From: Rhynchopus sp. YZ270_cl-10 | Taxonomy: Eukaryota | Assembly (NCBI GenBank): GCA_964035575.1 | Contig: OZ037839.1 | Span: 620,001-684,000 of the forward strand | Reading direction: 5' to 3' | DNA length: 64,000 bases | Part shown: positions 14,884 to 52,600 of the stretch, in pieces | How positions within the stretch are numbered: position 1 is the stretch's first letter | How the letters are laid out: every line of letters begins with the position of its first letter | Translations under genes and position numbers: made by a program | Notes under the pieces: generated by a model | What the model saw: the letters and a program-made list of their open reading frames with translations, nothing else | Database searches by the model: none | Told to the model about the DNA's origin: nothing

Positions 14884-15835
14884 CTAAAAACCAACGTCAC
14901 CTAGTCTGCTGCGTACAACGTTGCTACACTTGTCCATTCCGTCTACTTTCGACAACCTTTTGCAGTTGTAGAGAAACCTACCACCAATCGTGGTGACTGC
15001 TTGCAGGCCGGTGAAGTCCACTTCCGACAACGATGTGCAGTTGTAGAGAAACCCCTCACCAATCGTGGTGACTGCTTGCAGGCCGGTGAAGTCTACTTCC
15101 GACAACGATGTGCACTCGGAGAGAAAATCATCACCAATCGTGGTGACTTCTTGCAGGCCGGTGAAGTCCACTTCCGACAACGATGTGCAGTTGTAGAGAA
15201 ACCCCTCACCAATCGTGGTGACTGCTTGCAGGCCGGTGAGTTCCACTTCCGACACCACCATCAGCTTTTCAGGGATGACCAATGTGACGGATATTGAAGA
15301 CAGCTTTTGTGCGGACTGCAACATTTCGCAGTTGTAGAGAAAATAATCACCAATCGTGGTGACTGCTTGCAGGCCGGAGAAGTCCACTTCCGACAACGAT
15401 GTGCAGTTGTAGAGAAACCCCTCACCAATCGTGGTGACTGCTTGCAGGCCGGTGAAGTCCACTTCCGACAACGATGTGCAGTTGTAGAGAAACCCCTCAC
15501 CAATCGTGGTGACTGCTTGCAGGCCGGTGAAGTCCACTTTCAACAACGTGCTGTTGGAGAGAAACTTGTCACCAATCGTGGTGACGCAGGGTAATGCAGG
15601 CAGGTGCAGTGTGATGCCACAGTTGTCCTCCACATTGGGTACGCAACTGAAACCAATGCGCGTTACGTCACTACGTGAGAAGAACTCTTCTGGAATCTCA
15701 GTCGCAACTTCTGCCTGAAGAAGCAAGCTGGCCACCTTCGGATCGTCCACCTGCTGCAACCTTTCTGCTGTGATGTTTGTCTCACCCAATGCATGAAGAG
15801 CTGATATGGCTTCGTACTTCATCGTTTTCGTCAAC
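14884..15835 (-). pseudogene. 3' (linker + LRR) half of the UBL-LRR gene interrupted by the retrotransposon
   Basis: Begins LTKTMK-YEAISALHALGE, i.e. continues the 5' half at 24845-25056. It has 8 LRR units and is near-identical to copies at 26372, 30812 and 48644. Confidence 0.9.
15817..15835. repeat. Target-site duplication, copy 1 (cttcatcgttttcgtcaac)
   Basis: An identical 19-mer lies at 24844-24862; the intact paralog (~49439-49457) has a single copy. Confidence 0.95.
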
Positions 15836-15905
15836 CGTGGGGGCCCGTTTTCGATGCATGCACCCCTATCCGAGATAGGTGATACAATACATCGTGGAGG
15901 TGATG

Positions 15906-18900
15906 TTACATAAGTCCATCACCGCCCCTGCTGTGCCCATCCTTCTGCTTCGTCTGCTTCTTCTTGAAGAAGCCTCCCAGCGTCGTCTGTCGCCCCTTCG
16001 AGGTGTCGTGGTGGCGGCGGCAGCAGTGATCCAGCGTACTCTTCTCTTGCACACAGTTCCCGCACCTCGAGAGTCTATGCTTAGTGCATGCTTCGTGTCG
16101 GATCGGTAACCCGTCGTCGTTGGAGTGGTGCGCAAAGCAGCAATGCATCAGGTCTGCCTGGGCGTTCTTCGAGCAGGCATCACACTTCGTCTTCCGGTGC
16201 AGCACACATATCGCAAACTGGAAGATCGGAACCGCTCCTTCAGGTGCCTTCACGGGTGCGTCCCCTGGACGCACGTGCTCATGGTGCCGGTAGCGAGCAT
16301 GCGCAGATGTCTCCTGTTCAGCCCGCTGGATGAATGGTAGTGCCCTCCTGCCCCTAACTTCTGTGGAGGGGTACGCCGTCTCAGCAGAATACTCCCCCAT
16401 CCATGTACCTCTCGCTCTATCGCCACCACGGAGCTCCGCCTCAGACATGCCTTCGGAGCTGCGTTGCAGACGGTACGCCACACCAGCATCGTATAGCGCA
16501 CGCAATGCCTTCAACGTTTCTTCTCCGCCGGCAAAGATAGGACGGCGGTCGATGCCTGTGATGGCGTTCGCCCCAAACGAAGCGAGAACATGCGTTACCT
16601 TCACCTTCCCCGGATGGAGAGAGCTCTCCGAAAAGGTTCTGAGTGAAGCCAACATATGCCCAAAGGTGGTCGTCTTCGCCATTTCTCTGTGGACCAGCGC
16701 TACTGGCACCACGTCGTCATCATCGTCGTCTTCCTCACTCCCGTCGTCTTCCCCCCCATTGTTGACTTCTTCCCCAGTCCCATCCCTCGGCTGCTTCAGC
16801 TTCGGCGCTATTCTGCCGGTCTTGTCCCCAGGTCGGATGTCCATCCCTGTGGCAACCTCGAAGTCGATGAGCAGCTCCATGTGGGAGACTTCACGTCCAG
16901 CTTCGTCGCTCCATTGTAAACCACCCAGCCAGGAGGCAAACGCCAGCAGCAGCGCACGTCCATACGGCCACCTCCTTTTCAGGGGGGTGTAGTCCACCAA
17001 ACTGTTCGCGTGTTGCGTCGTCGTGTCCAACTCCGGCGCCCACGTCCACGGGTATCGGTCTTCTTGCAGTCGCGGGTTCGCCGCTTCCGGTCTGCTCCAC
17101 TTGGAGCGTGCGATGAGGATGCGCACCATCATCTTCTGCAGGTCTGCAACACGGGCGCATTCCAAAGGTGTGTCCGGTGTGCACATGCCGCAGATAGCGA
17201 GACAGTTTGGCCAGGTCGTTCTGTCAATGTCCAACAGCAAGGGGTACTCCGCACGAATGCTACTCCATGCTTCACATTCCCACCACAAGTGTTTGTGATT
17301 TTCGTCCACCCCCGCTTCGCAGTGCACGCAGATGGCCGAGTCCCGTATGCGCGCTCTCGCAAGTCGCACCCCCGTTATCGCACCGTCAGCTACAATGTGT
17401 CGCAGCGTCCCCGCCTCGTAATCCGTCAAAGTTTTGCTTCGGGTGAGAGCAAGGGTTTTCTCCTTATCCACCCCCGCTTCAATACCCTTCAGGTTAGCTC
17501 TGCCTTTGCCATTGGCCTTCGCAGTCGTCTTCGTACGGGAGAGTCGAATGAAGAACATCCGTTCTCGCACAACGTGGCCCAGTCTGCCCAAGCTTACTGT
17601 CTTCACATCAACGATGCTCCCATCGTGCGTTTTCACTTTTGTCGTGTCTATCCATGACCACGCAAGGCGGCTGAGGGCTCGCGCAATCAACCCGATGGGT
17701 CCTCCAGTCTTCGCCTGCTTCGCTTTCGCACGTGACCTGCACTTTTCGACCAGCAAACAGATCTCATCCGATTTGCGTATCATCGCCGCCCACGTCATGA
17801 TCCTTCTGTAGTCGAATGCCACCGAGGGGTCGAGCAGATGGCCTTTCTCGAAGACATTCAGCATGACCGGTACGCTTCTTCGGTTCATCTTGTTCACGCC
17901 GTGGACCCCTTTCTCCACTGCAGTTGCAAGACTGTTCACGTATTTCCCAGGTGGGTCCTGCACCGTGATACCGTACACAGATTTCGACATCACTGCAGCC
18001 TGCATGATGCCTGCTTTCTCACCTTGAGTCAGCGGGAGGCATCCCACCTTACCTGCTAGCGGTCCGCATGCGTCGATGGTGTCTTCCAGCTTCGTCGGGA
18101 GCGTGGGCGTCCCAGCCTGTCGGGCCTGCACCGTCGCCCCCAGGCACTCCGACTTCTCGACGCGAGTAAGATCCGCGCCGTTCATCTGCACAGTTTCCTC
18201 TTCATCAGGACGGTTGCTCTGCCACGTGCTCTTCCCCGCGTGGACGCGTTGTCCCGTCAAGTCTGCAAAGTGTCCGGTGAAGGCGACACCCGCTCGCAGC
18301 TGGTCGAGGGTCTTCGTCAGGAGGTTGGTGTCGTCAGCATACGCCAGCCCCTGCGTGCCCGTTTCCTTCTCCACCCCGTTCATCCACACCGCCACCAGCG
18401 CATTCAGGAAGATTACGCTCAGTGGGCATCCTTGGAGGATACCATTCGTCGCAAACCATTCTTTGCCAAGACCTGCCGGAAGTTTGAAACGCCTCCCCAG
18501 CTTCTTGTATATACCCCGGATGGGGCGCATCATGTTGTCGGGAAGACCCAACCGTTCGACGAGCTGGAACATGATCTCTTGGGGAACACGGTCAAAGCAC
18601 TTCTGATAGTCGAAGGAGGCTAGATAGATAGGTGTGTCGTCTATCAGAGCCTCCTCCATCTTCGCACAGAGAAACCACAGCAGGTCTTCGGTTCCGTGTT
18701 TGTTCCGGAAGCCGTGTTGCCGCTCGTGAATCCAGGATTCCTGCCACGTCGCCACTTTGCGGAGTCGAGTCGCCGCCCATAACCTGTACATCACACTGGT
18801 GATGGTAATGGGTCGCTGCTTCAGGGGCTCCTCGCCTTCTCCTTTGGGGATGAGCACCACCAACGCCCTCGCAATCACCCTGGGCCAGTTCCCAGTATCC

Positions 18901-19397
18901 TCGATCAGGTTCAGGCAGCGCGCGAGTTCCTCCAGCAGTGTCAAAGGCAGTTCCTTCAGCTCCTCCACCCTCCACCCATCGAGGCCTGCCGCCTTTTTCC
19001 GCTTCATCTTGCCGATGGTCGTACGGAGGTCTTCGGCGGTCAGGGGTTCGCATACACAAGGGGCCCCTTCAGGAATGTGTTCCTTGAACCTATCAAAGAA
19101 CGTCGTCCACGCAGGTTCTTCGGAATCGTCGTACATCCGGAACACCCCACCCCAAGCACGGTCATCCATGAGCAGTTCATCCATCTCCTGGAGGTTAGCT
19201 GTAACCGTGCCGTCCTCCCGTTTCAGGAACGTGGTGTGTGACGACGTAGCCTTCCGCAGGAACGAGAACACCTTCGCTGGGTTCACCTTCATGTGTTCCT
19301 TCATTGTGCGGCGCCATTCCTTGATGCGGGCCCGACGCCGTTGCTCCAGCAGGACAAAACCCCTCTTCTTCAAGCAGCCAAGGCCCACACAACGCCT
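15906..19397 (-). CDS. ORF2 C-terminal part: reverse transcriptase, zf-RVT-like finger, tandem Cys/His module, PIP box (frameshifted relative to APE)
   Basis: Motifs KAAGLDGW, RPITIT, QHGFR, FDYQKCFDRV, GILQGCPLS, YADD and CVHC..ENHKHLWWEC, with C-terminal QTTLGGFF. Confidence 0.93.
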   Translation of the reverse strand, partial: RRCVGLGCLKKRGFVLLEQRRRARIKEWRRTMKEHMKVNPAKVFSFLRKATSSHTTFLKREDGTVTANLQEMDELLMDDRAWGGVFRMYDDSEEPAWTTFFDRFKEHIPEGAPCVCEPLTAEDLRTTIGKMKRKKAAGLDGWRVEELKELPLTLLEELARCLNLIEDTGNWPRVIARALVVLIPKGEGEEPLKQRPITITSVMYRLWAATRLRKVATWQESWIHERQHGFRNKHGTEDLLWFLCAKMEEALIDDTPIYLASFDYQKCFDRVPQEIMFQLVERLGLPDNMMRPIRGIYKKLGRRFKLPAGLGKEWFATNGILQGCPLSVIFLNALVAVWMNGVEKETGTQGLAYADDTNLLTKTLDQLRAGVAFTGHFADLTGQRVHAGKSTWQSNRPDEEETVQMNGADLTRVEKSECLGATVQARQAGTPTLPTKLEDTIDACGPLAGKVGCLPLTQGEKAGIMQAAVMSKSVYGITVQDPPGKYVNSLATAVEKGVHGVNKMNRRSVPVMLNVFEKGHLLDPSVAFDYRRIMTWAAMIRKSDEICLLVEKCRSRAKAKQAKTGGPIGLIARALSRLAWSWIDTTKVKTHDGSIVDVKTVSLGRLGHVVRERMFFIRLSRTKTTAKANGKGRANLKGIEAGVDKEKTLALTRSKTLTDYEAGTLRHIVADGAITGVRLARARIRDSAICVHCEAGVDENHKHLWWECEAWSSIRAEYPLLLDIDRTTWPNCLAICGMCTPDTPLECARVADLQKMMVRILIARSKWSRPEAANPRLQEDRYPWTWAPELDTTTQHANSLVDYTPLKRRWPYGRALLLAFASWLGGLQWSDEAGREVSHMELLIDFEVATGMDIRPGDKTGRIAPKLKQPRDGTGEEVNNGGEDDGSEEDDDDDDVVPVALVHREMAKTTTFGHMLASLRTFSESSLHPGKVKVTHVLASFGANAITGIDRRPIFAGGEETLKALRALYDAGVAYRLQRSSEGMSEAELRGGDRARGTWMGEYSAETAYPSTEVRGRRALPFIQRAEQETSAHARYRHHEHVRPGDAPVKAPEGAVPIFQFAICVLHRKTKCDACSKNAQADLMHCCFAHHSNDDGLPIRHEACTKHRLSRCGNCVQEKSTLDHCCRRHHDTSKGRQTTLGGFFKKKQTKQKDGHSRGGDGLM

Positions 19398-20910
19398 CTA
19401 TCCCAGGAAGGTCGAGGTCCCAGGTGTCACTCTTCAGTAGATGCTTCTTCTTGCGGATTTTCGCCCACAGCTGCCGTTCGTTCAACGATTCTGCAGATGG
19501 CTGACCGAAGCGCTTCCTCCGATCACCAATGAGCTGCTCCATCTGACGACATGTCTTCTGCAGTTGAGCCGTCTCCAGGTTCACAGCATCCGGCGTGTCG
19601 CAGTCCATGCGGGCCGTCCGATGTCGGAGAACGTCGGGTTGCACCTCCCCTCTCCCCCTGTGGCGTTGTTGCTTCGGGTCTGAGTCTGCAGCACCTCTCT
19701 TCAGCAGGTAGTCCTCCGCAATCTTGCAGAAGCGTGCCCAGCGATCTTCAACCGACATCTTCGTCAGGTCGGCTTCAGGGGCAGCGTTCTCCTGCATCAC
19801 CTTCGCTGCAAGCTCCTTCTCCTTCTTCGCCGGCCATTTCGTCCAGTCGTCGCCGATCAAAGAAAGGGGAGGGCGTGCCTGCGGTGCCTTCTGCTCGTAT
19901 CGCGTCAGGTCTAACGTCAACACCACCGGTCTGTGTACCGGGAGGCAGCTCTCTTTCCAGACCACCACTTTGGAGATCGCAGGGGCAGCCACGTGGTTCG
20001 CCAGCACCAAGTCGATACGTCTGCCAGACGATGTGGAGGTATAGCATGTGTTCTCTGCTGCCTTACCCAACTGCTGTGCGTAGGTATCTGCCGCATCAAC
20101 CCATTTGCCGGAGGAGATGGCCGCTCGAATGGCTAGACTTTCGTTAGCCTCTACGTTGAAGTCTCCGGCAATGAACACCGGTATGTCCCCAAGGCTGGCT
20201 GCTTCTTCAAAGATGCCTGTCAGGAGTTGCTCCGTGCGGTCGCTGTCAGCACACACACCATAAAACGAGAACACAGAGATGTTACGTCCCCCGCTCCCAT
20301 ATGCCACCTGCGCATGCGTAAAGCGGCATTCGTTCCACGCTTGTTGGGCACATTGTGGCGGTACTGCTCTGGTCGGTATGTCAGCGCACGTCATGATCGC
20401 AACTCCACCATTCTGCGTGCGCGTGCGCAGAGGGTCTGATCCCTGGCTTCGTCTGCAAGGGGCACCAAAGAGAAGCTGCTTGGCACCATACCCCTTCACG
20501 TCGTTTGCTGCCCCCTTCATCTCTTCTTCTGTGAGGCGCACCTCCTGCAGAGCACAAACGTCCACATCCCACTCCCCCACCGCAGGGTGTGCCCTCAGAG
20601 ACGTCACGTTTGCCGTGCCAAGCGACATGGTCGACGGACCCGGATGCTCCTCCACGTCTCCACATGTCAGCAGTGACCCCCTGCCCAAAAACGCCCCTCG
20701 TCGCCTCCCTCGACGCACCCTGTGTCCGACCCCTCGCCCCACCCCCCTTCGCGTTCTACCCTTACCCCTTGTCCCCGACAGCATACAGCCCGCAGAGCGC
20801 AAACGATGCTGACCCCTTGTTGGGGAGACAGTTTTCACAAAAACGTCTCGTTCTCCAACTACGCACGAAGAAGCCAATCCTGTGCCGTACCCTTCCACCG
20901 CACCACACCG
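19195..20910 (-). CDS. ORF2 N-terminal part: linker, 2A-like peptide and apurinic endonuclease (APE) domain
   Basis: GRGSLLTCGDVEEHPGP followed by TANVTSL, ALQEVRL, IAGDFNV, RRIDLVL and PVHRPV. The frame opens immediately after the ORF1 stop. Confidence 0.88.
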   Translation of the reverse strand, partial: RCGAVEGYGTGLASSCVVGERDVFVKTVSPTRGQHRLRSAGCMLSGTRGKGRTRRGVGRGVGHRVRRGRRRGAFLGRGSLLTCGDVEEHPGPSTMSLGTANVTSLRAHPAVGEWDVDVCALQEVRLTEEEMKGAANDVKGYGAKQLLFGAPCRRSQGSDPLRTRTQNGGVAIMTCADIPTRAVPPQCAQQAWNECRFTHAQVAYGSGGRNISVFSFYGVCADSDRTEQLLTGIFEEAASLGDIPVFIAGDFNVEANESLAIRAAISSGKWVDAADTYAQQLGKAAENTCYTSTSSGRRIDLVLANHVAAPAISKVVVWKESCLPVHRPVVLTLDLTRYEQKAPQARPPLSLIGDDWTKWPAKKEKELAAKVMQENAAPEADLTKMSVEDRWARFCKIAEDYLLKRGAADSDPKQQRHRGRGEVQPDVLRHRTARMDCDTPDAVNLETAQLQKTCRQMEQLIGDRRKRFGQPSAESLNERQLWAKIRKKKHLLKSDTWDLDLPGIEALCGPWLLEEEGFCPAGATASGPHQGMAPHNEGTHEGEPSEGVLVPAEGYVVTHHVPETGGRHGYS

Positions 20911-23900
20911 TCACCGCCCCACATCGCGCAGGGTGTTGCGGCCTACCAACCTGTTGTCTAGTCCCTGGACGGGACGAAACGCGATCTCGATGACGTCCCC
21001 CGCTACCTTCACGACAGTCACCGGGATGGCTGCGCCGTTGCCTCCCTCCTCGCAGTACTCCATGGAGTCGCCAGCCTCCAGCACTGCGTTCCCGTACGAC
21101 TCCTCGTTCTTCTCGTTCCCCTCCGCCTGCTCTTTTGCGGGGACTTCCGTCCGCATCCTGCGCGGCGGACTCAGCAGCGCCACCGTCTCACCGGACTCAC
21201 TGCGGTCTTCCCGCTTGCCCGCCAGGGTCACGGCAGGTGGCGCCACCGGCACTCTGGGAGCTGGCGAGGTCTCCGCGTCCTCCTCGACAGCCGCACAGTC
21301 TGGCGATGTCTGCACCGGCAGTGCCATGTCGGCGTCGTCCATCCGTGCCTCGGCGTCTGGTGTCGTGGGTGCGGGGGTCCCTGCGCCGGCGTTCTCCCCT
21401 TGCTCCTGCTCACGTTGTGCCTGCACTGCTGCAGCACGTCTCTCCTTCTTTGCCGCCGCTTCTTCCTGTGCTGCCCGTAGTGCCTCCCGTCGTTTCTCAG
21501 CGGCCACAATGTTCCTGCGTTTCTTCTTCTTCTTCGGGGACGCCACCACTACCTCCACATCACCGGCGCCAGCAACGTCCGCAGTCGGCGATGTGTCCCT
21601 GGGCGGTGCTGACCGCGACCGGTTCCGTGCTTCGGCGACTTCTACGACTACCCCCGGCTTTCCACGGATGGTGTCAGCCCTCCTCCTCCTGCGGCGCGGG
21701 CTCAGCTCCTCAACCTCACTGGACCCATTTCCCGCACGTATCCGCTTACCTGCCATCGTTGCGGGCTCCGGTGACATCACGTCCTCGGCATTCCCGTCTG
21801 GGAGTGTGTCCAACAATTCATCCGCCATCTGCATCTCGGGTGTTGTGGGCGCTGCAGTGGGCACTGCGACAGTCGGGGCCGTAGTAGCAGCAGCCTCCCC
21901 CTCGCGCTGCCTGGCGTTCTCAGCAGCAACTGCAGCAGCGGCGGCGGCGGCTTCCTCCTCCTGCTGCCAGAGGATTGCAGCAGCAGCGTCGGCTTCCTCA
22001 CGCTGCTTGAGGACTGCAGCAGCGGCGGCCTTCTCCTCCTCCTCACGCTGCCTCAGGGCTGCAGCAGCAGCGGCCTTCACCTCCTCCTCGCGCTGCTTGA
22101 GGGCTGCGGCAGCGGCGACCTCCTCCTCCTGCCTCAGGGCTGCAGCAGCAGCGGCCTTCACCTCCTCCTCACGCTGCTTGAGGACTGCAGCAGCGGCGGC
22201 CTTCACCTCCTCCTCACGCTGCCTCAGGGCTGCAGCAGCAGCGGCCTTCACCTCCTCCTCGCGCTGCTTGAGGGCTGCAGCAGCGGCGGCCTTCGCCTCC
22301 TCCTCACGCTGCCTCAGGGCTGCAGCAGCGGCGGCCTTCACCTCTTCCTCACGCTGCTTGAGGACTGCAGCAGCAGCGGCCTTCGCCTCCTCCTCACGCT
22401 GCCTCAGGGCTGCAGCGGCGGCGGCCTTCGCCTCCTCCTCCTCCTCCTGCCTCAGGGCTGCAGCAGCAGCGGCCTTCACCTCCTCCTCACGCTGCTTGAG
22501 GACTGCAGCAGCAGCGGCCTTCGCCTCCTCCTCACGCTGCCTCAGGGCTGCAGCGGCGGCGGCCTTCGCCTCCTCCTCCTCCTGCCTCAGGGCTGCAGCA
22601 GCAGCAGCGGCGTCCTCTCTCGCAGCAGCCGTGGCCTCCTTCGGCATGGAACAGAGCTTGCCCACTTGCTCCAGCATGGCCGCCATCCACACCTGCTGCT
22701 CCTTCCGTTGCTCCACCCGTTCTTCCCGCAACTGGGCCGTCAGCGACGCCACCGTCTCCTGCAGCAGGGTCTGGAGGCGCTCGCCCACCAGGCGGTCCAA
22801 CCTCTCCTCCATCCGGCGCTCCAACTCCGCCCACTTCTCGCCTGCGTCCTCAGGTGATGGGGCGGGCGACGTCATTGGGGGTTGACCCTTCGGCGTCCGT
22901 TGCTTCGTTGTTGTTGTTGTTGTTGGTGGAGGTGTCCTTGATGTGGTAGTGGGTGGCTTCGCTGCAGCTGGCGCTGTTGCTGCTTGGCGTGCGTGCGCAG
23001 CCCAGGACACCCAACCGTAGTCGGGCCCAGTGCCACGGTTGTGCTGCGCTGTCGCCGCCGGCGCCGTCCGGGCACCAAATGTCGGACCAGACGCATGTGC
23101 GGTATGTACCTTGGCCTTCTGTTTCGCCCCCGGACCCGGAGCCGTTGCCCTACCCCCGCCCTCCTTATGCCCATCCTTGCGGATCAGCAGCCCCTTCCCG
23201 TTCCCCTCCATGTCCATGGCCCACGTCGGCGGATCCAGCTTCGCTCCCACCACCCAACGCCATCCCTCCAGCCTCCGCAGCGGCGTCACCGTCCACCCTG
23301 CGCCTGCCAGCGACTCCATCACCGCTTCACCGGACGTACCCGACGGGAAACCGGACACCACGTATCGACCTTCGGGCGCCTTTCCCTCCTGCATGAGTGC
23401 CGCATTTGCACGCTCCTGATCCTCCTTCTTCACCCGTATCCCCAGGGACTCGTACCTCGCCGCCACTCCCCATCCCCCCATCCGGGTCGCCAGCCCCTGG
23501 GCCTCTTCTAGCCCCACCCCGTCCACCAACCACACGACAGGCAGATGCTCCGACTGCTCGCGTCTCATCCGGAAGAAGACACCCCCCTTCCCACTCTGCT
23601 TCAGGCAGCGCTCTGCTACGTCCTCCCTTACGTCGGCCACCGAGGAGATCAGCTTACCCTCCTGCCACAATGGTGGGCGGTTGAGGTTGCACCCCACCTC
23701 CGCACGCATCTTCTTCCCCGCTGACACCAGGTCCTGCGCTTGTCCTGCTGTCGGCCTCATCGTCACAAACACCGTCACCAGTTGGACGGCCGCCGACGCC
23801 TTCTTCCCCCCGTTTCCTCTCCCCGGCCTCAGCCTCCCCACCACGTACACGGCCGTGCTCGCCGCCCCGTTCACCTTCCCCCCATTCCCCTGCTTACCCA

Positions 23901-24723
23901 TGGGGCACTGCATCTTCTCCCCACCAGACTTCGGGAAGGACCCGAAACCCACCCACGTCACGCCCGGCGTGCGCGCGATCTTCCCCTCTGCCTCTACCTC
24001 TCTACCCTGCGGCACAAGACAGACCCCCTCCGACTTATCCACCACCTCCCCCCACGGCACAAGCGTCGATCCCACCCACTCCGATTGCAGCAATGTCAGC
24101 GCTGCCGTCGTCTTCTTTTTCCCTCCCCCCTGGGTGAAGCCCCCCTCCGTCCCCGCCTTCGCATCGTTTCGCGGTTGCGGCACGGTGTACGGCTTCTCCG
24201 TCACCTCCAACGCACCCCCCACCATCGCCTTGCGGGCCCGGTCTTCGGCGGCTTCTTCCCCCGTGCTCGTGGGGAGGACGCACAGGTAGTGGCATGCGTC
24301 CACGTACGCCACCGTCACCGCTGCACCGCTGCCCTTCTCCTTCGGGTGCACCTTCAGCACACGCACCTCCCCATCCTTCACCGAGAAGGCATACACCTCC
24401 CGCATCAGCACCTCCGCCAACGCCTTCAGGGTCAGGTGGTCCCCCCAGGACCCCTGCTTCGCCATCGCCGAGCAGTACCTCCGGTAGGCGGACGGTCCTC
24501 CGTCAACGTGCTCACCCCAATTCTCCGCTTCCCGTTCCAACACCCCCACCGCCATCTCCCTCAGCCCCCCGTGCGCCGTGGCGTCTCCGTGCACAGCCAT
24601 CGAGACCGCCTTAAATTGGCAGTCTCCGTTCCCCCCTGCGTCCTTTACCCGCATGTCGAAGCCCCTCAGGTATTTCTGCAGCACCCCCTTTTCCCCCCCT
24701 TGGCCACCTGCCCCTCCGCACAT
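20911..24723 (-). CDS. Retrotransposon ORF1: OTU-family cysteine protease, RRM-like region, Ala/Glu-rich coiled coil
   Basis: GGNGDCQFKAVS...WGDHLTLKALA...AYVDACHY is an OTU catalytic Cys/His pattern; RYVVSGFP is an RNP2-like motif; it also carries (KAAAAAALRQREEE)n. The first element-internal ATG is at 24723. Confidence 0.82.
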   Translation of the reverse strand: MCGGAGGQGGEKGVLQKYLRGFDMRVKDAGGNGDCQFKAVSMAVHGDATAHGGLREMAVGVLEREAENWGEHVDGGPSAYRRYCSAMAKQGSWGDHLTLKALAEVLMREVYAFSVKDGEVRVLKVHPKEKGSGAAVTVAYVDACHYLCVLPTSTGEEAAEDRARKAMVGGALEVTEKPYTVPQPRNDAKAGTEGGFTQGGGKKKTTAALTLLQSEWVGSTLVPWGEVVDKSEGVCLVPQGREVEAEGKIARTPGVTWVGFGSFPKSGGEKMQCPMGKQGNGGKVNGAASTAVYVVGRLRPGRGNGGKKASAAVQLVTVFVTMRPTAGQAQDLVSAGKKMRAEVGCNLNRPPLWQEGKLISSVADVREDVAERCLKQSGKGGVFFRMRREQSEHLPVVWLVDGVGLEEAQGLATRMGGWGVAARYESLGIRVKKEDQERANAALMQEGKAPEGRYVVSGFPSGTSGEAVMESLAGAGWTVTPLRRLEGWRWVVGAKLDPPTWAMDMEGNGKGLLIRKDGHKEGGGRATAPGPGAKQKAKVHTAHASGPTFGARTAPAATAQHNRGTGPDYGWVSWAAHARQAATAPAAAKPPTTTSRTPPPTTTTTTKQRTPKGQPPMTSPAPSPEDAGEKWAELERRMEERLDRLVGERLQTLLQETVASLTAQLREERVEQRKEQQVWMAAMLEQVGKLCSMPKEATAAAREDAAAAAAALRQEEEEAKAAAAAALRQREEEAKAAAAAVLKQREEEVKAAAAAALRQEEEEEAKAAAAAALRQREEEAKAAAAAVLKQREEEVKAAAAAALRQREEEAKAAAAAALKQREEEVKAAAAAALRQREEEVKAAAAAVLKQREEEVKAAAAAALRQEEEVAAAAALKQREEEVKAAAAAALRQREEEEKAAAAAVLKQREEADAAAAILWQQEEEAAAAAAAVAAENARQREGEAAATTAPTVAVPTAAPTTPEMQMADELLDTLPDGNAEDVMSPEPATMAGKRIRAGNGSSEVEELSPRRRRRRADTIRGKPGVVVEVAEARNRSRSAPPRDTSPTADVAGAGDVEVVVASPKKKKKRRNIVAAEKRREALRAAQEEAAAKKERRAAAVQAQREQEQGENAGAGTPAPTTPDAEARMDDADMALPVQTSPDCAAVEEDAETSPAPRVPVAPPAVTLAGKREDRSESGETVALLSPPRRMRTEVPAKEQAEGNEKNEESYGNAVLEAGDSMEYCEEGGNGAAIPVTVVKVAGDVIEIAFRPVQGLDNRLVGRNTLRDVGR
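21950..22610 (-). repeat. ~45-nt coding minisatellite (KAAAAAxLxQREEEx)n in ORF1
   Basis: More than a dozen imperfect 15-aa units seen directly. Confidence 0.9.
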
Positions 24724-24759
24724 CGCGTCGAGGCTGCCCCCCGCCGCCGTCCTTCTTCC

Positions 24760-24844
24760 CCGCGCTTTAGCAGACGCCTCCCCCCATAGAGGAGGGGGGC
24801 GTCTCCCGAGGGTACCCCGTGGAGGCGCGTCGTCTCTCACCCTC
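24760..24844 (-). ncRNA. HDV-like self-cleaving ribozyme at the retrotransposon 5' end
   Basis: Minus strand: P1 GAGGGU/ACCCUC; P2 CG(A)CGC/GCGCG; P3 GCC/GGU; L3 UCCACGG; P1.1 CC/GG; P4 AGACGCC..GGCGUCU; J4/2 GCUAAA. G1 coincides with the TSD boundary. Confidence 0.8.
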
Positions 24845-25056
24845 TTCATCGTTTTCGTCAACACGACTGTGTCTCCAGCACTCAGTTCTGTGATGTCCTC
24901 TCCTTCCTCCTTCCCTCCGAAGCCCATGCGGAAGCTGTCTTCGCACAACCCTGTTGCAGTCGCCACCTTCTGCCGCATCGTCTCCGTTGTGTCGTTCTCA
25001 CCCACCTCAATCACGAATTTGGTGTCATCATCATATCCCTGCACAAACAGTTCCAT
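24845..25056 (-). pseudogene. 5' (UBL) half of the interrupted UBL-LRR gene, in frame with retrotransposon ORF1
   Basis: MELFVQGYDDD...VVLTKTMK runs without a stop into the element sequence RVRDDAPP. Confidence 0.9.
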
Positions 25057-48643: not shown

Positions 48644-49645
48644 CTAAAAACCAACGTCACCTAGTCTGCTGCGTACAACGTTGCTACACTTGTCCATTCC
48701 GTCGACTTTCGACAACATTTTGCAGTTGGAAAGAAACCTGTCACCAATCATGGTGACTGCTTGCAGGCCGGTGAAGTCCACTTCCGACAACGTTGTGCAG
48801 AAGGAGAGAAAATTGGTACCAATCGTGGTGACTGATTGCAGGCCGGTGAAGTCCACTTTCGACAACGTTGTGCAGTTGCAGAGAAACCCGCCACTAATCG
48901 TGGTGACTGCTTGCAGGCCGCTGAAGTCCACTTCCGACAACGTTGTGCAGTTGGAGAGAAAATAATTACCAATCGTGGTGACTGCTTGCAGGCCGGTGAA
49001 GTCCACTTTCGACAACGATGTGCAGTTGTAGAGAAACCCGTCACTAATCGTGGTGACTGCTTGCAGGCCGCTGAAGTCCACTTCCGACAACATTTTGCAG
49101 TTGTAGAGAAAATTGGTACCAATCGTGGTGACTGCTTGCAGGCCGGTGAAGTCCACTTTCGACAACGATGTGCAGGAGGAGAGAAACCCGTCACTAATCA
49201 TGGTGACGCAGGGTAATGCAGGCAGGTGCAGTGTGATGCCACAGTTGTCATCCACATTGGGTACGCAACTGAAACCAATGCGCGTTACGTCACTACGTGA
49301 GAAGAAGGCTTTTGGAATCTCAGTCGCAACTTCTGCCTGAAGAAGCAAGCTGGCCACCTTCGGATCGTCCACCTGCTGCAACCTTTCTGCTGTGATGTTT
49401 GTCTCACCCAATGCATGAAGAGCTGATATGGCTTCGTACTTCATCGTTTTCGTCAACACGACTGTGTCTCCAGCACTCAGTTCTGTGATGTCCTCTCCTT
49501 CCTCCTTCCCTCCGAAGCCCATGCGGAAGCTGTCTTCGCACAACTCTGTTGCAGACGCCACCTTCTGCCGCATCGTCTCCGTTGTGTCGTTCTCACCCAC
49601 CTCCATCACGAAGTCCTTCCCCAAGCCCTGGATAGTCAGTTCCAT
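48644..49645 (-). CDS. Ubiquitin-like domain + LRR protein (7 LRR units; displaced copy)
   Basis: MELTIQGLGKDFVMEVGEND... start, and it shares the 3' flank with the array copies. An upstream in-frame ATG exists at 49741. Confidence 0.88.
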   Translation of the reverse strand: MELTIQGLGKDFVMEVGENDTTETMRQKVASATELCEDSFRMGFGGKEEGEDITELSAGDTVVLTKTMKYEAISALHALGETNITAERLQQVDDPKVASLLLQAEVATEIPKAFFSRSDVTRIGFSCVPNVDDNCGITLHLPALPCVTMISDGFLSSCTSLSKVDFTGLQAVTTIGTNFLYNCKMLSEVDFSGLQAVTTISDGFLYNCTSLSKVDFTGLQAVTTIGNYFLSNCTTLSEVDFSGLQAVTTISGGFLCNCTTLSKVDFTGLQSVTTIGTNFLSFCTTLSEVDFTGLQAVTMIGDRFLSNCKMLSKVDGMDKCSNVVRSRLGDVGF

Positions 49646-52600
49646 TTTATGTGTCTCTTGATGTATCTCTGCGGGTGGGTTGTTGGGTAAGGAAGAGCTT
49701 TTAACCCGCAAACCCCAAGATTTTTTATCATCTGAATCCATGCTTGTAGCTATCTAGCCGTGGTACGTGGCGATTTTTTTCGCCAAAAGAAAGAAAAAAA
49801 TCGGCCGGAAAGAAATTTCCCTCGGGCAATAAATTTCCTCAGGAAATAAATTTCCTTCCGGGATATGCACCTGGGAACTGGGTTGCATCCTGTACCTTAA
49901 TTATTTTTGCCTGCGGCGCCATGTTTCATTTTTTGTTCCGCAAAAAAGGGTTCGTTGAGTGACTCTGGTGTCAGGGATTACGCTCCACGTGTGGAACGTA
50001 TGGAAATCCATACGTGAATTGTTTTTGAAAAGGTGGAATCAATACGTGTCCATATGTAGGTAATTTGGGTTTTGGATTGAGGCTGGGGTGGGGGTAGGTG
50101 AGGAGTGCACAGTGCACATGGGGGCTCCGCCCCCACCCCTCACCTACCCCCCACAGAATTCTATTTTTAGAAGACAATTTTCTTCTATTTTACCGGAAAA
50201 GGAAGATGCAGCATGGCGAAAGAAAAAATATTGCGTACCGTGGCTTCGCTAGAAACTTTCGTTTTAGCAAAATATGGAAGTAAAATTTACGGAACTGGGT
50301 GATAGTATTACCAACAAAAGTGCCATTTTTTGTGTCAATATTTAAAGAAATGTTGCGTACCGTGGCTTCGCCAGAACCTTTGGGTGACATGACCCCGTCC
50401 ATCTCCCATTTTTTTGATAAAACAACTTTTCCGGCTTTGAGCGTACAAACAAAAGACCCGATCTTTTCCCCCAGTTCTTTCGAACTTTCACAGCCCTTCT
50501 CATCCAACTTTGCCAGGGAGAGCGCGCGCGAGGTTTTTAATTGTTTTTGATTAGAATTGTACGTGTTGAAAATCCACACGTACAAGTATTTCGGTGCTCC
50601 GGAGCCTGTGCGCGCTGTGATGGGGTCACTTTGCGCTGAGAAATGAGTATTTTTGACCTAAAATGCATGTATCAGTTTTTACAGGCCATTTTTCAGGTTT
50701 TGTGTGCAAAGTATGGTCGCTACTTGACTTCTGAAGGAAAAGGGCAAAGTGAACGTGGGGGCAGTTTGCCTAGCTGCGAACTTTGCTGCATGTTGTGACC
50801 CACCATTTGACGGACGGAGCTCGTAGAACCCAATGAGGAGTGAGAAAGAAGGATATGGTCAAAGAAAAAAGTAGCGTACCATGCGCCTGCGGCGCAAGCT
50901 TGCATTACATCATTCCCGTGACATAGTTTGGCTGTAAAAAAAAGGTGCAATTTTAAGCGCATTTTTTAATGAATTGCCCTGTTTTTCAGCAACAAGCGTC
51001 ACAGGTTCAAAAGAAAACGAAGGTGTTCCTGCTGATGGCGGAGGAGTAGGAAGACTTCGCTCCCCCATATTTGTTTCCGGAATTGAGCTTCTGAGGACCT
51101 TTTTCGCGCGAAGCGCGAATATTATTTTTTCCCAAAAAGAAAGAAATTGGCCGTGGTATTCTAAAATTTTTCGGGAAAAACGGCATATTTAGCGATAAGT
51201 ATGTCTCGTCATAAAAAATATAGGGGATGGGGGTATTCCAAGAGGTAATCCAGCTTAACCAGGTTAAGAGAATCAGACGAAAGTTTTGGAATGTTCACAT
51301 GGCGCGGCCGATGACCCCAAAATAGCAGAACATAGCACAAAAATAGAACAAAAATAGCACAAAAAACAGCACCCCCTTTCAGCCACACCATCAGATACTT
51401 CATTCTGGAATAAAGCCCACCTGCTTGACCTGAAGGCCGGCACCCCGGCGGTGACAGAAAGACCTGCCCCGCACGTCCTCTGTGTAGGGTCCGTTGGAAG
51501 AAAAAGAATCGGTAACAGAAACAAAAGGAAAGGGGAGGAGAAGGCCATTTTTGTTGTGTCGACAATCGCCGAGTAATCCCACCAGGTGGGAGAACTTGGG
51601 TCTGTACTCATTGTTGGCCGAAGCCTTTGTACTACGGAAGGTATAGACGTAGTTCGTCCTGAACCCTTAAGAGCAACTACTACAGTTTTTTTGAGAACTG
51701 TCGCGTTTTTTTTTTTTTTTTTTGATTTTTTTTTTGAGTGTTTTTTCCCCCACAAAAAAAGATGCCTCTTCTGTGTGCATATACAGAGGGCTGTGCAAAA
51801 TATGGTGTAAAAAAATATAATGGAAGGTGGGAAGGTTAATGACGTCACCCTTTTCTTTCCCTCTCCCCCAACCTGGATCAGGAAATACCCCAACCCCAAC
51901 CCTTTTGCTATTAGGAACGAAGTTACTCGTTACAAGATTTAGTAGGGTTCTGTAAGGTTCCCCGAGGGTTATCGAACCCCCCCAGAGACCACTTCGTTGA
52001 CACGCACACGGTTTCCACGAGGGGGGGGGAAAAAGGTAGAGTTGAAATATAAAGCCCTCTCGTGAACAGTGAAAAGAAATAAGAGAAGTACACACAACGC
52101 ATCACCGTTCAAGGCGAACGCAGGCACTAACAAAAAAAAAAAATCAATACTTCCTGGCTTTTTGAAAGCTCAGGGAAAGACTGGCTCTCCCCCCATCACA
52201 CAGGAGTGCACCTTTTTTTACTTTTTTTCTCGAATAAAAAAGACAAAACGGCAACGGCACACCCTCTATAGCCTGGGGGCGTCTAGTGGCCGCAGTCTGT
52301 TGGTGTGTCCGTTGCAAAAGGAAAGAAAAAATGTTGTTTGATTTTTTTTAAAAAAGACTACCATCATCGGGATAGCAGCCACCGATATTTCCCCTTTTCT
52401 TAATTTGTTGGAGTAGTGTAGCTGCCTCGGTTGTGTTGCCACAGTTGGTGCAGTCTCCACTTTCTTCACATAAATCCAGAAAAAAACGCAAAAAAATGGC
52501 GTTATTTTTCAAAGGAAAGAAAATTCGACAGAAGAATGACACATCAATAGGTGTGTGTTTAGGTGATGTGGTCTGACACTGAGGGATACTGTCGCTCTTT

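Follow-up and report, generated by a model that had tools for sequence, protein, structure and literature searches.

A UGA codon between the two genes of a diplonemid non-LTR retrotransposon as a candidate site of readthrough upstream of a 2A-like peptide

Results

One reading frame across a conserved stop codon

The window analysed here is a stretch of 64 000 nucleotides (nt) from Rhynchopus sp. YZ270_cl-10 (GenBank assembly GCA_964035575.1, contig OZ037839.1, positions 620,001 to 684,000). On its minus strand, at 15836–24844, it carries a full-length retrotransposon of 9009 nt, which lacks long terminal repeats (LTRs) and encodes an APE endonuclease and a reverse transcriptase (APE-RT). The two open reading frames (ORFs) of this element lie in one frame and are separated by a single UGA, which is followed by CGG. 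On the basis of the sequence, ORF2 is probably made by programmed readthrough of this UGA at a low level, after which skipping at a 2A-like peptide would free the APE-RT protein. All positions below are those of the window, and all features of the element are on the minus strand.

ORF1 (20911–24723) codes for 1270 amino acids (aa) from its own ATG at 24723 to the TGA, and the ORF2 region (15906–20910) extends from the codon after the UGA through a TAA. The junction reads GTG GGG CGG TGA CGG TGT GGT GCG GTG GAA, with the TGA at 20913–20911. The ORFs 25146–20911 and 20910–19195 constitute one frame with no further stop between them; this frame stays open into the APE domain and includes the AUG codons at 20784 and 20628, as described in an earlier note on this DNA made from its letters alone. 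Each of the remaining two linker frames contains three stops. Composition shuffles of the linker give a stop-free frame in 3.4 per cent of cases over 82 codons, and in 16.5 per cent over the first 42 codons (to the AUG at 20784). There are 163 TGA triplets on the sense strand of the element; the next triplet is CGG in nine cases and CTA in none. The hexamer UGACGG (20908–20913) is the type II hexamer of Venezuelan equine encephalitis virus (VEEV) and Colorado tick fever virus (CTFV) (PMC13517186), and by its sequence context the junction resembles type II readthrough, of which it is a putative case.

Other copies were assessed through the contigs of four runs (X1–X4, from three studies; one run may be the source of the window) and through protein clusters. 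In X2, X3 and X4 (depth 792, 919 and 1914, respectively), the main contig matches the window without differences over 20624–20986, and X1 shows none at the junction. Nine ORF1 calls belong to the same family, designated A: six have identical ends (one is the window's own), a seventh has the same end point and three substitutions, and two are cut short by a frameshift. The UGA stop is family-wide and not private to this copy: it is present in all four runs, and the seven family A calls that reach the C-terminus all stop at this codon. A sense codon in other copies, which the earlier note had named as one observation that would speak against its reading, was found in none of them.

A second type of ORF1, designated subfamily B, is 55 per cent identical to that of family A. 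Subfamily B is known from contig fragments; the differences considered here are those listed for the aligned stretches, excluding places within 30 nt of the aligned ends. In all three B calls the final residue is the homologue of the last residue of A, although the last five residues are different. A lower-depth B contig, found in three of the four runs, aligns to 20773–20886 at 80 per cent or better and then diverges; its ORF1 end does not align. In reverse complement, its loose end reads the codons for R-T-K, which are the last three residues of B, and then UGA-CGG, so that the conservation for which the earlier note had asked extends to the homologous codon of the sister subfamily. After the hexamer, B has four different codons before the frame of A resumes, with six codons in place of the eight of A (an in-frame deletion of 6 nt). 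A and B are identical at about half of the 24 positions flanking the hexamer; against this background the hexamer and the shared frame are conspicuous, in what is one comparison only. The fifth codon after the stop is an in-frame AUG in B and GUG in A, with G at −3 and +4 in both. In the 2A coding region, both listed B changes (20659 and 20653) are synonymous.

Occasional readthrough appears likely because the two genes share one frame with a single stop and the hexamer is kept in a diverged sister family. Protein searches found no full-length or fused ORF1–ORF2 protein of families A and B; this is weak evidence, since A fusions near 3000 aa fall outside the lengths covered.

A stem-loop beyond the junction

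A conserved stem-loop is located at 20819–20859 (inner stem 20849–20825); counted from the U of the UGA, it begins at +55. The hairpin drawn by the earlier note is present as written, with 15 of 15 pairs complementary, and the inner 10 pairs have probabilities of about 0.5–0.99 across six folded contexts. Together with its surroundings, the hairpin does not exceed shuffled sequences in stability (z = 0.27 over 151 nt, −0.37 over 61 nt). For the 41 nt of the hairpin alone, a segment that was picked after the fact, 25 of 1000 shuffles are as stable. An exact search of viral contigs for the hairpin motif gave no match.

Subfamily B has eight listed differences across 20803–20856. Placed on the hairpin as stated in advance by the earlier note, the changes affect six of the 11 unpaired observable places versus one of the 27 paired places (Fisher p 0.001; p 0.004 when permuting within codon positions). 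Three are in the 4-nt loop, one is in a bulge, two are in the internal loop and one breaks an A-U pair; one of the internal-loop changes would add a G-C pair. A version of the comparison based on ensemble probabilities gives p 0.005–0.022 in all five contexts. Because the listed B changes largely spare the paired places, the stem-loop is likely a functional RNA element, and it may be a stimulator of readthrough.

Two further suggestions of the earlier note fared less well. The covariation that it proposed to look for is not seen: there are no compensatory pairs among the eight listed changes, with one sister subfamily to compare, and the changes avoid paired places instead. The possible outer pairing UACGGC/GCUGUA (20889–20884 with 20789–20784) is complementary, yet its probability is 0 in four of five folds and 0.18 in the fifth, and this outer stem is rejected for lack of support.

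Type II viral structures begin at +9 to +16 in VEEV, Sindbis virus (SINV), chikungunya virus (CHIKV) and CTFV (PMC13517186). The type II context that the earlier note saw here therefore holds as regards the UGA-CGG and the in-frame downstream ORF, and departs in geometry, the conserved hairpin beginning at +55. A small proximal hairpin (20882–20903), starting at +11, is a weak candidate for the stimulatory position, with pair probabilities of 0.0–0.9 depending on the context.

The 2A-like peptide and entry into ORF2

The 2A-like peptide (20635–20694) lies 91 codons downstream of the ORF1 stop. It ends in GDVEEHPG|P and departs from GD(V/I)ExNPG|P by an N-to-H change, a variant for which lower skipping activity is reported (PMC3708506); a relative from Diplonema papillatum carries the same motif. 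It is followed by the APE endonuclease domain (19954–20583; Pfam PF03372, E 1e-10) and the reverse transcriptase domain (18201–18851; Pfam PF00078, E 1.5e-19), the top PDB matches of the latter being L1 ORF2p and R2. ORF2 is split by a two-base deletion at 19382–19383 that is specific to this copy or assembly: the contigs of X1, X2 and X3 all have two extra letters (X4 has no listed cover), and ORF2 is one ORF in the other copies represented by run contigs. Including this deletion, the differences that set this copy or assembly apart cluster at 19382, 19299, 19285, 19064 and 19032.

There are two in-frame AUG codons before the APE domain. The AUG at 20782–20784, a possible alternative start of ORF2, has U at −3. 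The AUG at 20626–20628, downstream of the 2A motif, has A at −3, as do 10 of 10 host starts examined, and so fits the context of host initiation, unlike the AUG at 20784. A methionine between 2A and APE is not general among relatives: it occurs in two of the 14 that bear 2A and is absent from the D. papillatum protein. For this reason ribosomes probably enter APE from upstream of the 2A motif. Initiation just after 2A, one of the alternatives put forward by the earlier note, is accordingly disfavoured here and rejected as a general start.

Relatives with and without the continuous frame

Among named proteins, the closest are those of Diplonema papillatum (49% identity), Sulcionema specki and Flectonema neradi. 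An ORF1-like core is fused to APE in one ORF in the relatives P0075 (pairwise E 4e-13) and P0119 (7e-05), and an OTU domain and APE are found within one ORF in seven of the 30 relatives scanned. These fused relatives suggest that a continuous ORF1–APE frame is natural in this group. An OTU-ORF2p arrangement, and a 2A between ORF1p and ORF2p in one ORF, have also been noted elsewhere (PMC13405545). Scans of IMG/VR, JGI and GTDB gave 21 loci, of which L007 is the sole member of the same group. The remaining 2A matches among these loci are distant long interspersed nuclear elements (LINEs) or viruses without a comparable junction. L007, a 35 per cent relative, has at 97–220 an in-frame UGA located 31 codons before the 2A motif, with no AUG between them, and its contig ends 32 codons upstream.

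One ORF joins the OTU domain directly to APE in P0032, P0050, P0057, P0083, P0150, P0162 and P0167, and in P0146 a domain of the UCH type takes the place of OTU; deubiquitinase domains are recurrent in this group of relatives. A similar layout exists outside retrotransposons. In L004 (3109–3790), a contig of a viral collection, a 557-codon ORF is continued in one frame by UGA-CCC, 219 codons free of stops, a 2A motif and an ORF of 2012 codons.

Proposed expression of ORF2 and its alternatives

In the scheme that we favour, most ribosomes would terminate at the UGA, giving abundant ORF1p, and a few would insert an amino acid there, probably aided by RNA structure on the 3′ side. The latter would translate the Arg/Gly-rich linker and then skip at G|P. 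The expected products are ORF1p-linker-2A and a free APE-RT protein starting at proline, together with some fusion left uncut, since skipping is weaker in N-to-H variants. Combined, the two steps would set a steep ORF1p:ORF2p ratio without a second initiation event.

Several observations weigh against this scheme. The hairpin starts at +55, whereas VEEV and CTFV need a structure near +12. The lowest-energy fold of one of the five contexts places six of the eight B changes in paired places; moreover, one stem pair is lost in B (A-U to A-C) with no compensatory pair. Codon +5 is an in-frame AUG in B (GUG in A), and the AUG at 20784 sits 49 codons before the skip site, within the range of 40–80 aa reported between start and 2A for ORF2s that have a start of their own (PMC3708506). 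UGACGG has been seen in two independent subfamilies only, of which B is known from fragments, and the UGA of L007 precedes UGC, not CGG. Finally, the D. papillatum relative has a Met-initiated leader of 330 aa before 2A, and no ORF1 match from this relative was found among 7990 candidates scored.

Termination followed by reinitiation, aided by the hairpin as in the element SART1, is an alternative that we consider unlikely. The start would be the +5 codon (AUG in B, GUG in A) or the AUG at 20784, and the common frame would be inherited from a fused ancestor, for which the fused relatives could account historically. The +5 codon has G at −3 and +4 in either subfamily, the AUG at 20784 gives the usual distance from an ORF2 start to 2A, SART1 requires a downstream structure, and an unconventional reinitiation has been proposed for L1 ORF2 (PMC5972666, PMC3708506). 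Reinitiation leaves unexplained, however, the retention of UGA-CGG while the codons on either side change, as well as the frame-preserving indel ahead of any AUG common to both subfamilies. The U at −3 of the AUG at 20784 contrasts with the A of the host starts, and reinitiation after an ORF of 1270 codons is held to be improbable without special signals (PMC3894237). Still less probable is spliced-leader (SL) trans-splicing at an internal AG (20817–20816 or 20860–20859), which would yield a capped ORF2 mRNA read from the AUG at 20784, the conserved island being the splice signal. In D. papillatum, virtually every mRNA is SL trans-spliced from polycistronic RNA (PMC10161547), and the host of the element is probably a diplonemid as well. 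The stretch before the AG at 20817 resembles the C/A-rich ones before AGs upstream of host starts, no B change is listed within 20827–20804, and the pyrimidine fraction is 0.6 at the best linker AG versus 0.6–0.8 at host sites, which are guessed and not mapped acceptors. Trans-splicing explains neither the hexamer, nor the frame, nor the sparing of both arms of the stem, and among the listed loose ends of contigs none joins foreign sequence at either AG.

The remaining explanations concern the stop itself. A cis intron of 99 nt from the GT at 20914–20913 to the AG at 20817–20816 would remove it and keep the frame, the length being a multiple of three. The GT is present in both A and B because the G before the UGA is kept in both. 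Against such an intron, the donor lacks the usual G at +5, intron-less copies would be expected from a retrotransposon, and none of the seven listed joints in the four runs spans the stop; we regard it as very improbable. It is no more credible that the UGA is read as sense, through a change of the host code or as selenocysteine, although it is the lone in-frame UGA in a frame of about 2900 codons that is open in all other places. Two of the 10 host ORFs end in TGA, and the 6202 host codons include 82 TGG and no internal TGA; UGA is thus an ordinary host stop, and its reading as tryptophan in the host is rejected. The element itself has 52 TGG and one TGA, and no match to an Rfam selenocysteine insertion sequence (SECIS) was found in it. 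The least likely explanation is a private nonsense mutation or a sequencing error. This copy does have private differences, such as the 2-nt deletion at 19382, but the stop recurs in every run and full-ended A call, and likewise in the three B calls, and this explanation is ruled out.

The element and its host genes

The element is an APE-type non-LTR retrotransposon: it has APE and RT domains and a target-site duplication, and a self-BLAST revealed no terminal repeats, and hence no LTRs, apart from this duplication of 18–19 nt. The duplication (18 nt, or 19 counting a shared G) has its 5′ copy at 24845–24862 and its 3′ copy at 15818–15835. The insertion lies in a host gene coding for a ubiquitin-like domain and leucine-rich repeats (LRRs), and the empty insertion site is present in five paralogues of the interrupted gene in the same window. 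This gene family forms an array of at least seven tandem genes (6813–31792 and 48644–49753), all on the minus strand, as is every long host ORF examined.

ORF1 is also in frame with the host gene ATG at 25056. Of the family A ORF1 calls, eight include the 5′ end, and six of these show an in-frame insertion at one and the same codon, in various genes of the host ubiquitin-like/LRR family (window 24862–24845; proteins P0171, P0172, P0173, P0176, P0178 and P0179). Insertion of family A thus looks target-specific, judging by these flanks; the ORF1 calls of subfamily B have other flanks. The in-frame insertion joins the host ubiquitin-like domain to an ORF1 resembling OTU deubiquitinases.

ORF1 comprises an OTU-like cysteine protease domain (24289–24633; Pfam PF02338, E 9e-10), a conserved core, an alanine/glutamate repeat and a conserved C-terminal domain. 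The AlphaFold model of the core has a mean predicted local distance difference test (pLDDT) score of 49.9, and matches to RRM domains are no better than E about 0.1; Foldseek gave nothing at E 0.001 with this low-confidence model, and there was no usable match in the structure atlas. The tandem repeat of Ala/Glu/Lys units (22617–21929) differs in copy number among insertions, with ORF1 calls of 1224–1425 aa, and is not found in subfamily B. The peptide RRTAAG, encoded upstream of the first ATG of the element (24760–24724), recurs directly before 2A in P0021, P0030 and P0182, hinting at a leader that may be shared among relatives.

A candidate ribozyme resembling that of hepatitis delta virus (HDV) is predicted at 24762–24844, beginning at the first base of the element. 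It fits our own descriptor with a P1 of 6 bp, a P2 of only 3 bp and a long P4; this loose descriptor also fits four other positions in the window. Rfam gave no match for the candidate, and the Rfam scan returned two chance-level hits and nothing else. The frame is open across 24844–24762, and the region is similar in subfamily B (P0174, P0181).

Discussion

It has long been an open question how LINEs translate their second ORF (PMC3894237, PMC3708506). The reviews consulted describe reinitiation; readthrough has been suggested from consensus sequences of Paramecium. The elements concerned are the Group 3 LINEs of Paramecium tetraurelia (Guerin et al. 2017, PMC5405496), which resemble the present element in encoding APE-RT and in having ORF1 and ORF2 in the same frame. 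They differ in forming a ciliate-specific clade, and the accessible text of that report mentions no 2A, OTU domain, 3′ structure or experimental test. SART1 and mammalian L1 likewise have bicistronic RNAs, and in SART1 a structure beyond the ORF1 stop plays a part (PMC5972666, PMC3708506). They are described as relying on termination–reinitiation (a UAAUG overlap and a 63-nt spacer, respectively), whereas there is no stop–start overlap here and one stop in a continuous frame. The element Zorro3 is described as having four in-phase stops and an unclear mechanism.

The closest viral parallels are VEEV nsP3/nsP4 and CTFV segment 9, which have the same hexamer followed by a 3′ stem-loop, CTFV also continuing with UGU (PMC13517186). 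Their required structure starts at +12; here the junction belongs to a retrotransposon, the conserved hairpin is at +55 and the hairpin at +11 is weak. Structural and polymerase genes in one frame with one stop between them are also known in Tca2 of Candida albicans and VdLTRE5 (both gag-UGA-pol) and in Moloney murine leukaemia virus (MoMLV; gag-UAG-pol) (PMC3956500, PMC3441728, PMC13517186). All three are LTR elements or retroviruses, and the mechanism in Tca2 is described as non-canonical.

Products of Tca2, VdLTRE5 and MoMLV are processed by a protease and not by 2A. As regards the 2A motif itself, the element resembles L1Tc, the Ingi clade and other APE LINEs in which a 2A-like motif stands just before APE; the N-to-H variant occurs in 20 per cent of L1Tc copies (PMC3708506, PMC3894237). 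L1Tc has a 5′ HDV-like ribozyme that has been shown (PMC3185411), compared with a candidate predicted from sequence here. Elements of the Ingi clade are reported to be without ORF1 and have a single ORF, which sets them apart from this element with its OTU-bearing ORF1 of 1270 aa joined in frame through a stop. The nearest named protein, KAJ9444445.1 of D. papillatum (cluster P0004, 38 members), is 49 per cent identical over APE and has the same upstream 2A context; it differs in its repetitive leader, which runs 330 aa from a Met to the 2A. In the literature covered, from which most subscription papers and Repbase were absent, we found neither a LINE combining readthrough with a subsequent 2A nor this diplonemid family.

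Taken as a whole, the picture of a LINE whose reverse transcriptase is made by structure-assisted UGA readthrough and 2A skipping in series, whose RNA has a ribozyme-cut 5′ end and which inserts site-specifically and in frame into host ubiquitin-like genes is a possible one, and we put it forward tentatively. The junction is a compact cassette of 280 nt, available in two natural versions and ready for reporter use. LINEs with 2A have been described before; its presence correlates with the loss of ORF1, apart from three listed exceptions, and 2A has been proposed to replace ORF1 as a brake on ORF2. The present element runs counter to this proposal, both being found together, and 2A would here free the enzyme from a readthrough fusion. 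If the proposed scheme is true, two viral recoding devices would be joined in one cellular mobile element and ORF2 would need no initiation of its own, which would be one answer to the question of how ORF2 is translated from bicistronic LINE RNAs.

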